From Escherichia coli (GTDB lineage: Bacteria; Pseudomonadota; Gammaproteobacteria; Enterobacterales; Enterobacteriaceae): a stretch of DNA of 64,000 nt. The notes beneath the pieces are model-generated. The model was not told the DNA's origin, did no database searches, and saw only the letters and a program-made list of their open reading frames with translations. The stretch lies in assembly GCF_016026235.1 (NCBI RefSeq), contig NZ_CP065613.1; one strand, given 5' to 3'. The position numbers and the translations under genes are program-made. Of this stretch, positions 38,169 to 42,522 are shown in pieces (within the stretch, counting starts at the first letter, position 1; the number at the start of each line of letters is the position of its first letter).

Positions 38169-38780
<612 letters not shown>

Positions 38781-39163
38781 TTACAGGTACATTCAGTTTC
38801 TTTAGTAAATCGGAAGTAAATAAGATACGTAGCACATATCAATATAGGTTAAACGACATTAAGTTTTAATTATTTCGATTAGGTTTAAATTTATGTTTTT
38901 TTCCTGATGAGTGTCAATATGTGAACAGAAAATGAATTCCATGGTTAAGTCAATATTTACAAAAAATGAAAATATTGCTTTTTTGATAAGAAGAAAAAGA
39001 CATTCAGTTTCATAAGGTTATTGGCAATATAACGTTCAATTCTTACTTGCATTTTATATTAGCCAGGAACTTTGCCCTAAGGTGTTAGGAATAGTCTTAA
39101 TGTGTTGTGTAATGGACTAGTAAAAAAACAAGTTTAAATGATAAGAAATAGAATATAAAACTA

Positions 39164-39388
39164 TCATGAGTCATAATTAAAGATGATTTGCCAATCAGTA
39201 AGGTGTTTTAATGGATTAACATGCCGCACAAAATGGTTATGGGTGTTCATTCCAATAAGTGATGAAAAATTAAACAGGTGTAAGTACGTCATCTGTCCGG
39301 TAAGCCCCCTAAGAGCCAAATTAAGTGAAGTTAAACGAAGACTGCCAGTTGTCACAGGAACGATGGCCTCTTTGCCAGGGCACTGCAT
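39164..39388 (-). CDS. Hypothetical small protein (possibly ykgL-like)
   Basis: 74-aa ORF in the ecpR–ykgO gap; no motif recognised. Confidence 0.3.
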   Translation of the reverse strand: MQCPGKEAIVPVTTGSLRLTSLNLALRGLTGQMTYLHLFNFSSLIGMNTHNHFVRHVNPLKHLTDWQIIFNYDS

Positions 39389-39794
39389 TCAGTCATCTGT
39401 GCGCGTTACTCTAACTGGCACTCGAACGTCGGCGATGGGGTTACCGGTGGATCAGGCCGTTCCTGTGGCGTAAACGTTTTTATGTCAGTACCAACAGATT
39501 TACCACATTTATCATCTTAACAGTTTGAGTGTAAATGCAGGCTGCGTCGCAAAGGGAGGAAACTGAGTGGCGTGTTCAGTCTAAAAGAGGGTTGATGCCA
39601 GCATACAGGGCGAAGCTGGTCAACAAGTCAACATTAATATAATGGAATATTCGGAGAGAAACGTCAGGCAGTTGACCTTAAATGAACAGGAAGATACATC
39701 CCCAGGAAAATTAATGCTGGTGTAATAAATACACCAACATTAATCCGGTCTGATTATTAATCAGACAAATATCGTTAATCCGTCGAATTTTGAA

Positions 39795-39935
39795 TCAACG
39801 TTTTTTCTTACGACCCTGAACGGCCTTAAAACGTGGATTAGATTTACAAATCACATATAGCCGTCCTTTTCGCTTCACAATCTGACAGTCTGGATGGCGT
39901 TCTTTTGCGGTACGAAGAGAGTTAAGAACTTTCAT
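39795..39935 (-). CDS. ykgO: Ribosomal protein L36 paralog (zinc-independent type)
   Basis: 46-aa [49 protein letters not shown]; start overlaps ykgM stop. Confidence 0.85.
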
Positions 39936-40201
39936 CACGCCCCCTTTTTCGTGCTAACAAAACGACCAAAACGTTGGGTGAATCGTGCAACATTTCCTTC
40001 TGATGCCACTGTTCTCAGCTTCCCTGTATAGAACGGGTGCGATTTCGAAGAGACATCAATTGTTACGTACGGATACGTTACGCCATCCAGCTCAATCTCA
40101 CGGTCTGTTTTGATAGTCGAGCCGATTTTAAAGTACTCATCAACACTGGTGTCGTGGAACACCACAGTACGATACTCAGGATGGATATTGGGCTTCATCA
40201 T
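39935..40201 (-). CDS. ykgM: Ribosomal protein L31 paralog (zinc-independent type)
   Basis: [19 protein letters not shown]… L31 type B; start could be either of two adjacent Met codons. Confidence 0.85.
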
Positions 40202-40209
40202 TTTTACCT

Positions 40210-40227
40210 GTTATGTTATAACATAAC
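40210..40227. promoter_or_regulatory. Zur box (zinc uptake regulator operator) upstream of ykgM-ykgO
   Basis: Perfect 18-bp palindrome GTTATGTTATAACATAAC, 9 bp upstream of ykgM start. Confidence 0.75.
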
Positions 40228-40561
40228 TATAAAGATACATGCTCATCCGGATCATTTCAACACCCAATCCCTGTGACCATTAGTGATATGTGGAATTTCC
40301 TCAACGGGGAACTCTGGCATTGTTAACAGCCATTGGTGACGCTCCCATAAACGCCTGGATGAGTGATTGATGATAGTTTCGCTGAGAGTATGGATTTTTC
40401 GAGAATGGAGGTTATCTCCACTTTACTGGCCGATGATTTATCGCAGTATGATTGATTACCTGACAGCGTGTATTCCTCTCCCACGGATATAATAATTACT
40501 TACAAAAAGGGAGAGGATGCATATTTTAAATATCACTGAAGTGAACAGTTTATTGCCGTTA

Positions 40562-40663
40562 TTAATAGAAATGGAGAAATAAATAGGCGTATTCTACAAT
40601 TGCGACAAAAACAACGATATTAATCAGTTTATGACTGATTTGTTGTACTTTATTCTCTTTCAT
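40562..40663 (-). CDS. ykgR: Small membrane protein (33 aa), YkgR-like
   Basis: MKENKVQQISHKLINIVVFVAIVEYAYLFLHFY with GAGGAAG SD; below the ORF track size cut-off. Confidence 0.5.
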   Translation of the reverse strand: MKENKVQQISHKLINIVVFVAIVEYAYLFLHFY

Positions 40664-41136
40664 TGGTACTTCCTCGCTTTAAAAAAGAGCGCACTTCGTA
40701 AGTGCCCTTATATAAATAACGAGTTTGGTCAACCAATTTTTTGACATGTATCACAAATTTGAATAGATGTATTACATCGGCTATCTTTTATTGCACCAAC
40801 GTCATTGATATATGTCGCCTGAAGTCAGTTCCGGGAATGAGTCTGATCTCAAGACTGGCCCAGTCCTGGCGTTGATTGGCGCTGAGGAGCATATCGCATC
40901 TCATCATAATGTCGTATCTCCTGGGGTGTTATACAAGATATCGTTGTTGGTAACCTGGGCGAGGAATTGAGCTCTATTAAACCGTCAACTATGCCGGATA
41001 CATACTGGATTACACTGCAGGCACGCCTTATGAGAGAACGTGCCGCAGTGACGGGTTAATTATCTGAAAGAATTTGTGAGGCTGTATCGGTTACTCATTG
41101 ATTTGATAGTTTTACTCTCGGGAGAGTAATAGATAT

Positions 41137-42279
41137 TTAATCCATTAACGGAAACCAGCCAGTTCCTTTCGATGCCTGAATTTGATCCCATAGTTTATCC
41201 GGAATGGTTAATTCAGGAACAAGTTGTGGATTAAGGGTTGTTTGAATTTCATGGCCTCTACCTGATTCAGCTAAAGTCACCCATTCTGGATTTATCACCA
41301 GCCCTTTACCGATCGCAACAAGTGGCAGGCCAGTGGAGATTGCTTCTTGAGCCTGAGACGGTGTGCGTATTTTACCTGCAGCGATTACCGGCACTCTGCC
41401 TGCAATATGATTTAAAATCAATTCAATAGTTCGGGGGCCATTTGGCGACTCAACAGGGTAGCTTTCGTTAATACTGACCAGCGAGGTATGTATATACGAA
41501 ATACCGGATGAAATGAGCCGATCAAGGAGTTTATAAGTATCCTCTATCCGCAGTCCCCCTGTTGCAGATTCTTCAGGAGATATTCTGTAACCGATGGCAA
41601 AGGGCTTTGTCGCATATTCATAGACTACATTTTTTACTTCCTGTAATACGGCCAGCGGGAAGCTCATACGTCCTTCGAGATCTCCTCCCCATCGGTCATT
41701 ACGCTGGTTAAATAGAGGGGAGAAGAAATTCTGTAGAAGGAATCCGTGCGCACCATGAAGTTCAATGCCATCAAAACCTGCTTTAATCGCCCTTTTTGTG
41801 ACATCTCCGAATGCTCTAATGGTTTCCTGAATTTCGTTTTCAGTCATTTCCCTGCTTTGTACCACTCTCTTCATAAAGTCACCAGTTTTTACGCTTGATG
41901 CGCTGGCACTAATAACATCGTTATTTGGTACAAGCTCCGGGATGGCTTTATTACCGGCGTGGAAAATCTGCAAAATAGCCGGAGCACCCCCACTTTGGGC
42001 TGCCGCTGCTAACTTTTCAAGGCTGTTAATGAAACGGTCGTCATACGCGGCAAATTCATGAGTAAACCCAATGCCGCTTGGCGTGACATAGGTACATCCT
42101 GTTATTACTAAACCAACATTTTGTGAGCGGCGTTTATAAAATTCGAGTTCTTGCTCAGAGATGGTTCCATCAGGATTCGCTGACCAGGTCGTCATAGGAG
42201 CCATAACGATACGATTACGTAGCTTTATTTTTTCTGTCAGCATAAAAGGAGAAAACAATGATGGGTGTTTATTTGTCAT
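41137..42279 (-). CDS. Old-yellow-enzyme family NADH:flavin oxidoreductase / ene-reductase
   Basis: 380-aa ORF with OYE TIM-barrel signatures (…LQIFHAGNKA… ; …GIELHGAHGFLLQNFFSP…). Confidence 0.8.
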   Translation of the reverse strand: MTNKHPSLFSPFMLTEKIKLRNRIVMAPMTTWSANPDGTISEQELEFYKRRSQNVGLVITGCTYVTPSGIGFTHEFAAYDDRFINSLEKLAAAAQSGGAPAILQIFHAGNKAIPELVPNNDVISASASSVKTGDFMKRVVQSREMTENEIQETIRAFGDVTKRAIKAGFDGIELHGAHGFLLQNFFSPLFNQRNDRWGGDLEGRMSFPLAVLQEVKNVVYEYATKPFAIGYRISPEESATGGLRIEDTYKLLDRLISSGISYIHTSLVSINESYPVESPNGPRTIELILNHIAGRVPVIAAGKIRTPSQAQEAISTGLPLVAIGKGLVINPEWVTLAESGRGHEIQTTLNPQLVPELTIPDKLWDQIQASKGTGWFPLMD

Positions 42280-42522
42280 AACAATACCTCAAATGTTTAT
42301 CTGATTTTGATGCGTATGTTTTAACTGGTTAGTTGTTGCCAGCTTTGGAATCAAGATTTCTGGCTTTATTTATAATCCCTTCAAAGGATTTCTAATAATC
42401 TTAATAATTGAGTTGCTGCTTTTTTGTTTTTTAATGAAATTTCTTTTTGAGTAATTTTATTATTGTTGTGTAGTCAATAAAGGATAAATGTCAGGGAAAT
42501 AAGGGATCTCCCTGTAGGATTA

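Follow-up and report, generated by a model that had tools for sequence, protein, structure and literature searches.

The Zur operator of the ykgMO operon and the small membrane protein gene ykgR at one Escherichia coli locus

The region upstream of ykgM in this E. coli DNA almost certainly holds two independent features that have already been described in E. coli: the Zur operator of the ykgM-ykgO (ykgMO) operon and the gene ykgR, which encodes a small membrane protein. The region was examined as part of a window of 64,000 nucleotides (the whole stretch of DNA that was analysed, from contig NZ_CP065613.1), and no evidence contradicting the reading as two known features was found. An earlier note on the window had pointed to a perfect 18-bp palindrome near ykgM as a site of zinc repression and to a 33-codon open reading frame (ORF) farther upstream that resembled YkgR. 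The features of the locus are given below with their coordinates in the window and the basis of each assignment.

39795..39935, minus strand: ykgO, type B ribosomal protein L36, 46 aa (NF002021, Pfam Ribosomal_L36, RefSeq)
39935..40198, minus strand: ykgM, type B (zinc-free) ribosomal protein L31, 87 aa, without cysteine (NF002462, Pfam Ribosomal_L31, RefSeq)
40210..40227, no strand assigned: Zur box, perfect 18-bp (9+9) palindrome GTTATGTTATAACATAAC, predicted operator of the ykgMO promoter
40232..40260, minus strand: predicted sigma-70 promoter of ykgMO, with -35 hexamer TTGAAA (40260-40255), 17-nt spacer and -10 hexamer TATCTT (40237-40232) (promoter scan)
40562..40663, stop codon included, minus strand: ykgR, 33-aa single-pass small membrane protein (K-12 identity, NF041474)
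40669..40675, minus strand: Shine-Dalgarno sequence GAGGAAG of ykgR, 5 nt before the ATG (read from the sequence)
40681..40705, minus strand: hairpin GCACTTACGAAGTGC with a T6 tract, resembling a terminator and ending 5 nt before the ykgR Shine-Dalgarno sequence (terminator scan)

The segment from 39700 to 40800 matches 5086 of 5426 complete E. coli genomes with 97-99.7% identity (the best match is strain 48, a deer isolate), and the RefSeq genes under the match are ykgO, ykgM and ykgR, alongside ykgL or a hypothetical protein. This gene content identifies the locus as the well-known ecp-ykgL-ykgO-ykgM-ykgR chromosomal region. Matches to plasmids were considered as possible mobile copies of the locus and rejected, since most of them, judged by record size, look like large episomes of K-12 or entries of several megabases deposited as plasmids. 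Upstream of ykgR the window has an intact gene for an OYE-type NADH-dependent flavin oxidoreductase (380 aa, 41137-42279, minus strand), whereas in K-12 only the last 90 bp of this gene are left (pseudogene ykgP), with the eaeH pseudogene and IS3 beyond them. The intact oxidoreductase gene indicates that the locus is undeleted in the window, as it is in strain 48. On the other side of the operon, the ykgL homologue (39535-39725, plus strand) has a 1-bp deletion at ~39608 (GGGG to GGG) when compared to strain 48 and K-12. This deletion in the G-run splits the ykgL-like ORF into pieces of 35 and 27 aa, and it represents either a frameshifted pseudogene or a sequencing error.

The ykgMO operon and its operator

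The two proteins of the operon are recognised by their NCBIfam models, with YkgM scoring 122.9 bits against NF002462 (cut-off 86) and YkgO scoring 91 bits against NF002021 (cut-off 70), and the ykgM stop and the ykgO start overlap by 1 nt. The four-ligand zinc-binding motif is lost in both, as YkgM has no cysteine and YkgO has two (C17 and C30). Ribosomal proteins of this kind have been divided into C+ and C- forms (PMC9825181), and the cysteine loss in YkgM and YkgO is consistent with the C-minus, zinc-independent class. The start of ykgM was assigned to the second ATG of an ATGATG because other Escherichia have only that ATG, and the aligned single ATG supports the annotated start of the 87-aa protein at 40198.

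The palindrome that had been reported near ykgM was found 11 nt upstream of this start codon, and relative to the promoter it starts 5 nt past the -10 hexamer. A consensus promoter scan gave no enrichment over shuffled sequence (3 matches versus 4.6 expected), and Shimada et al. 2014 (PMC3946193) give the TTGAAA-17-TATCTT element, located between ykgM and ykgR, as the ykgMO promoter. The ykgM (L31p) operator of K-12 was characterised by Gilston et al. in 2014 for both Zur binding and repression, in a study that also mentions its earlier prediction by comparative genomics; among the K-12 operators it is the most palindromic and binds Zur most tightly (apparent Kd 0.025e-18 M2), and in vivo it is repressed ~560-fold (PMC4219657). 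Window and K-12 agree fully in the 18-bp box, both promoter hexamers (-35 and -10), the distance to ykgM and the genes downstream. They differ at 40229, 2 nt upstream of the box, where the window has A and K-12 has G, and this base is also variable among other Escherichia; a few further substitutions are located farther upstream, and none of these changes is expected to alter function. Based on this base-for-base agreement with the K-12 ykgM/L31p operator (PMC4219657), the proposed zinc-repression site is identified as the Zur operator of the ykgM-ykgO operon, and Zur would be expected to act on it in this strain as it does in K-12.

The alternative that has to be weighed here is that the palindrome arose by chance or serves a different regulator, for example Fur. 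The 64-kb window has no other perfect 18-bp palindrome, and a search with up to 3 mismatches found no second copy of it, but a perfect 18-bp palindrome of some sequence was held by 28 of 100 simulated windows. Since palindromes as such are common in the simulations, the case for an operator must rest on the identity of the sequence and on its location. The structure-derived motif for Zur operators is RxxxYRxxR*YxxYRxxxY (PMC4219657). The ykgM box fits RxxxYRxxRYxxYRxxxY at 8 of 8 constrained positions with a self-complementarity of 18/18; the window contains 231 loose matches to this motif, and the runner-up has a self-complementarity of 14/18. A position matrix was then built from the K-12 znuC, zinT and pliG operators, and ykgM was kept out of the training set because circularity was to be avoided. 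Against these independent Zur operators the ykgM box scored 25.66 of a possible 26.77 bits, which is the highest score in the window, above the training operators themselves (22.1-24.4 bits) and ~11 bits above the runner-up (14.47 bits). None of 200 simulated windows reached the score of the box, and as the simulated maximum was 20.7 bits, the sequence is placed beyond what is expected by chance. The motif scan, which the earlier note had named as a possible refutation, therefore came out in favour of a Zur site. The boxes of the Fur family are all AT-rich inverted repeats, which leaves some room for a Fur site; however, the central TATA, which is contacted by Tyr45, is reported to be specific for E. 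coli Zur and is absent from the Fur box consensus (PMC4219657). Together with the identity to an operator that Zur binds and represses in K-12 and with the genes that adjoin the 18-mer across Proteobacteria (discussed below), these results leave the chance or Fur reading barely credible.

The Zur operator of ykgMO would act by occlusion. A Zur footprint spans ~30 bp (PMC4219657), and with the box starting 5 nt past the -10 hexamer, a footprint of this size would cover the edge of the -10 hexamer and the expected transcription start. This placement agrees with Yersinia pestis, in which Zur footprints at the mapped ykgM, znuA and znuC promoters overlap their -10 elements (PMC2706843). Judged from the expected transcription start, the box overlaps the core promoter in the way that is looked for in a zinc-sparing gene. 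When zinc is sufficient, zinc-loaded Zur would occupy the box as a dimer of dimers that protects ~30 bp, covers the expected transcription start and thereby blocks RNA polymerase. When zinc is scarce, Zur would depart and the paralogues of L31 (cysteine-free) and L36 (type B) would be made, and these would replace the zinc-binding L31 and L36 in the ribosomes. The Zur-ykgMO switch is a textbook case of zinc sparing by means of ribosomal protein paralogues.

The Zur box in other genomes

When the window was aligned with K-12, E. albertii and a divergent Escherichia lineage (L109), the Zur box was identical at 18 of 18 positions in all four sequences. In the same alignment the spacer that runs from ykgR to the -35 hexamer has 47-54% identity and an indel of ~90 bp. 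A box that is kept amid a decayed spacer is a clean phylogenetic footprint.

An exact search for GTTATGTTATAACATAAC in the genomes of bacterial and archaeal species returned at least 120 loci, and nearly all of the matches listed are in Proteobacteria (alpha-, beta- and gamma-). In 31 of the 120 listed loci the 18-mer is located <400 bp upstream of a homologue of ZnuA, ZnuC, YkgM, YkgO or ZinT. Pfam annotation of 150 ORFs flanking the first 85 of the listed loci identified cobW/COG0523 (20 ORFs), ABC_tran (12), FUR family (12) and ZnuA (6) as well as the rarer FolE2 (4) and TonB Plug (4), with single or few occurrences of ZrgA, ZinT, L31 and L36. The ORFs that flank the 18-mer are dominated by the classic families of the Zur regulon, and this adjacency to zinc-homeostasis genes across Proteobacteria is the last of the observations that stand against a chance palindrome or a Fur site.

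Several other observations were made in the same survey. The 18-mer is often present in several copies per genome, as in Moritella and in a metagenome-assembled genome (MAG) of the Burkholderiaceae, and one match was found in the MAG of a spirochaete, Brevinema. COG0523, zur, znuABC, folE2, M15 peptidase and DUF1826 genes are further neighbours of the 18-mer (loci L006-L125).

The form of the box can be compared to the published consensus sequences. The gamma-proteobacterial consensus GAAATGTTATANTATAACATTTC and the consensus of the Rhodobacter group GATATGTTATAACATATC have a common core, ATGTTATAACAT, with TGTTAT...ATAACA half-sites (PMC2706843). The ykgM box is an even 9+9 palindrome without a central base, whereas the gamma consensus has an 11-1-11 arrangement. 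Without the central base the ykgM box is closer in form to the alpha-proteobacterial 18-mer than to the gamma consensus, and this is consistent with the many exact matches in alpha-proteobacteria.

The small membrane protein gene ykgR

The 33-codon ORF encodes the peptide MKENKVQQISHKLINIVVFVAIVEYAYLFLHFY, and its stop codon is located 334 nt upstream of the palindrome (the earlier note had given about 340 bp on the same strand, which agrees) and 363 nt upstream of the ykgM ATG. The ORF has the Shine-Dalgarno sequence that had been claimed for it, and the GAGGAA core of this sequence is invariant in the four aligned Escherichia lineages, with the seventh base being A in E. albertii. The peptide had been described as resembling YkgR. 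The likeness is confirmed but was understated, as the peptide is 100% identical to K-12 YkgR (b4671, UniProt YKGR_ECOLI) and has the same Shine-Dalgarno sequence, position and orientation to ykgM, so that it is YkgR itself. The gene differs from K-12 ykgR by one synonymous change, codon 8 being CAA in the window and CAG in K-12. YkgR scores 78.1 bits against the NCBIfam equivalog NF041474 (cut-off 40) with residues 1-33 of 33 covered, the UniProt entry YKGR_ECOLI has the exact sequence of the ORF and is found on at least 1000 contigs, and 5066 of 5426 complete E. coli genomes (93%) contain ykgR together with its flanking sequence. The description of the ORF as unlisted did not hold, since RefSeq already gives the name 'small membrane protein YkgR' in every listed genome row that covers ykgR. 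Since about 2008 YkgR has been catalogued among the small membrane proteins of E. coli.

The claim of a single transmembrane segment is borne out by the sequence of the peptide, in which residues 13-31 are hydrophobic (mean Kyte-Doolittle value of 2.01) and form the only such segment. The 12 N-terminal residues include 3 Lys and 1 Glu, and by the positive-inside rule this charged N-terminus suggests an N-in/C-out topology. Several studies have examined YkgR as a protein. Its insertion into the membrane has been described, it contacts the signal recognition particle (SRP) post-translationally and was cross-linked to it in vitro, and His-tagged YkgR that was encoded on a plasmid and induced by arabinose was seen in vivo by western blot (PMC7549839). 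The intramembrane protease RseP cleaves YkgR, as determined in four assay formats (PMC10470546).

The ORF could also have arisen by chance and go untranslated. With 33 codons it is very short, ORFs of 20-40 codons are numerous in the window, and no match was found in the Pfam copy that was scanned, although precomputed annotation does give PF28062:YkgR. The Shine-Dalgarno sequence, however, is strong and correctly spaced, and length and frame are kept at 85-88% identity in the homologues of E. albertii and L109, where the position is unchanged and the downstream spacer has an identity of ~50%; the conservation that had been anticipated for the peptide is therefore found in two lineages. The NCBIfam equivalog match and the detection of the tagged protein by western blot and SRP cross-linking likewise argue against an untranslated frame, which we regard as exceedingly improbable.

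An exhaustive phmmer search with YkgR against 1.84 billion representative proteins returned only 9 YkgR clusters, which are close variants of the Escherichia type and mostly frameshifted or truncated E. coli forms. The most divergent cluster (66% identity) is located upstream of a variant of the Zur box, a degraded ykgM and ykgO, and ecpR. The gene is found upstream of ykgM-ykgO in K-12, strain 48, E. albertii, L109 and L126. From the 9 Escherichia-type clusters and this shared context, the YkgR family looks to be confined to Escherichia and tied to the ykgMO locus. The last of these genomes, L126 (GCA_900603405.1, 4423-4815), is divergent and Escherichia-like. Its YkgR homologue has 66% identity, its Zur-box variant is GCCATGTTATAACATAAC, and its ykgM (57% identity, split over two frames) and ykgO (40% identity) are both apparently degraded.

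Elements around ykgR and the relation to the zinc response

The hairpin upstream of ykgR is kept in the four Escherichia lineages, with one compensatory change from A-U to G-C in E. albertii. This hairpin could mark the end of a transcript from upstream, or it could belong to the 5' part of the ykgR mRNA. Farther upstream, ~80 nt from the ykgR ATG, a CRP-like site TGTGATACATGTCAAA was seen at 40740-40755 on the minus strand, with both of its halves, TGTGA and TCAAA, preserved among Escherichia species. With one mismatch allowed, the CRP core has 3 matches in the window where 1.8 would be expected, which is no enrichment, and the site is kept as a lead only.

Downstream of ykgR, at 40473-40514 on the minus strand, 8-9 GC-rich base pairs form a stem (CCTCTCCC ... 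GGGAGAGG) that closes a long loop and lacks a U tract. This stem is located ~50 nt past the ykgR stop codon, other Escherichia maintain the pairing only via wobble-compatible changes, and it may serve ykgR as a non-canonical 3' end element. The terminator scan found no canonical intrinsic terminator between ykgR and the ykgM promoter, and an Rfam scan of 38500-42500 (E-value <=1) gave no match. Two other ORFs were considered as candidates and rejected: an antisense ORF of 21 codons (40517-40582, plus strand) with GGGAG upstream, as E. albertii and L109 lack its ATG, and an ORF of 53 codons (40323-40484, minus strand), which has no Pfam match and is located within the poorly conserved spacer.

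[quoted passage not shown] It is a T to C change at BW25113 position 308,687, and it was obtained against the sensitivity of a ydgH deletion to benzethonium/benzalkonium (PMC11705850). This change maps to a T-run of the spacer at ~40375-40379 (L128 position 688), ~180 bp upstream of the ykgM start, and the T-run is outside of both the Zur box and the core promoter.

The arrangement of the locus raises the question of whether ykgR takes part in the zinc response, either by read-through into ykgMO that is halted by Zur as a roadblock or by a functional tie to the ribosomal switch. The gene is co-oriented with ykgMO, E. coli, E. albertii, L109 and L126 share the order ykgR-Zur box-ykgM-ykgO, and the apparently Escherichia-only YkgR family is found at the ykgMO locus wherever context is available. 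With the gene order kept and no canonical terminator found in the spacer, read-through coupling retains a small residual probability. Against a zinc link, ykgMO has a promoter of its own, the spacer is poorly conserved and contains the ~90-bp indel, and the 9-bp GC-rich stem that follows the ykgR stop codon is conserved. No second Zur-like site is located near ykgR, as the next match in the window (14.5 bits) is elsewhere. YkgR is reviewed as being induced in stationary phase rather than under zinc limitation (PMC10502375), and the 20 top-ranked of 30 papers that name ykgR are on subjects other than its zinc regulation. No support for a zinc link was found, a role of ykgR in the zinc response is unlikely, and we give marginally less weight still to the statement that ykgR is transcriptionally or functionally coupled to the zinc-starvation ribosome switch, for example by read-through that stops at the Zur roadblock. 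If such a coupling were true, the conserved hairpin-U6 before ykgR could be a regulatory attenuator.

The reading of the locus as two independent features is therefore correct but ordinary, as the Zur operator and ykgR are both already known and the discovery value is small. The earlier call, which was made on the Zur box and the small ORF before any database had been consulted, proved accurate, and the window carries a standard, intact version of the Zur-ykgMO-ykgR locus.
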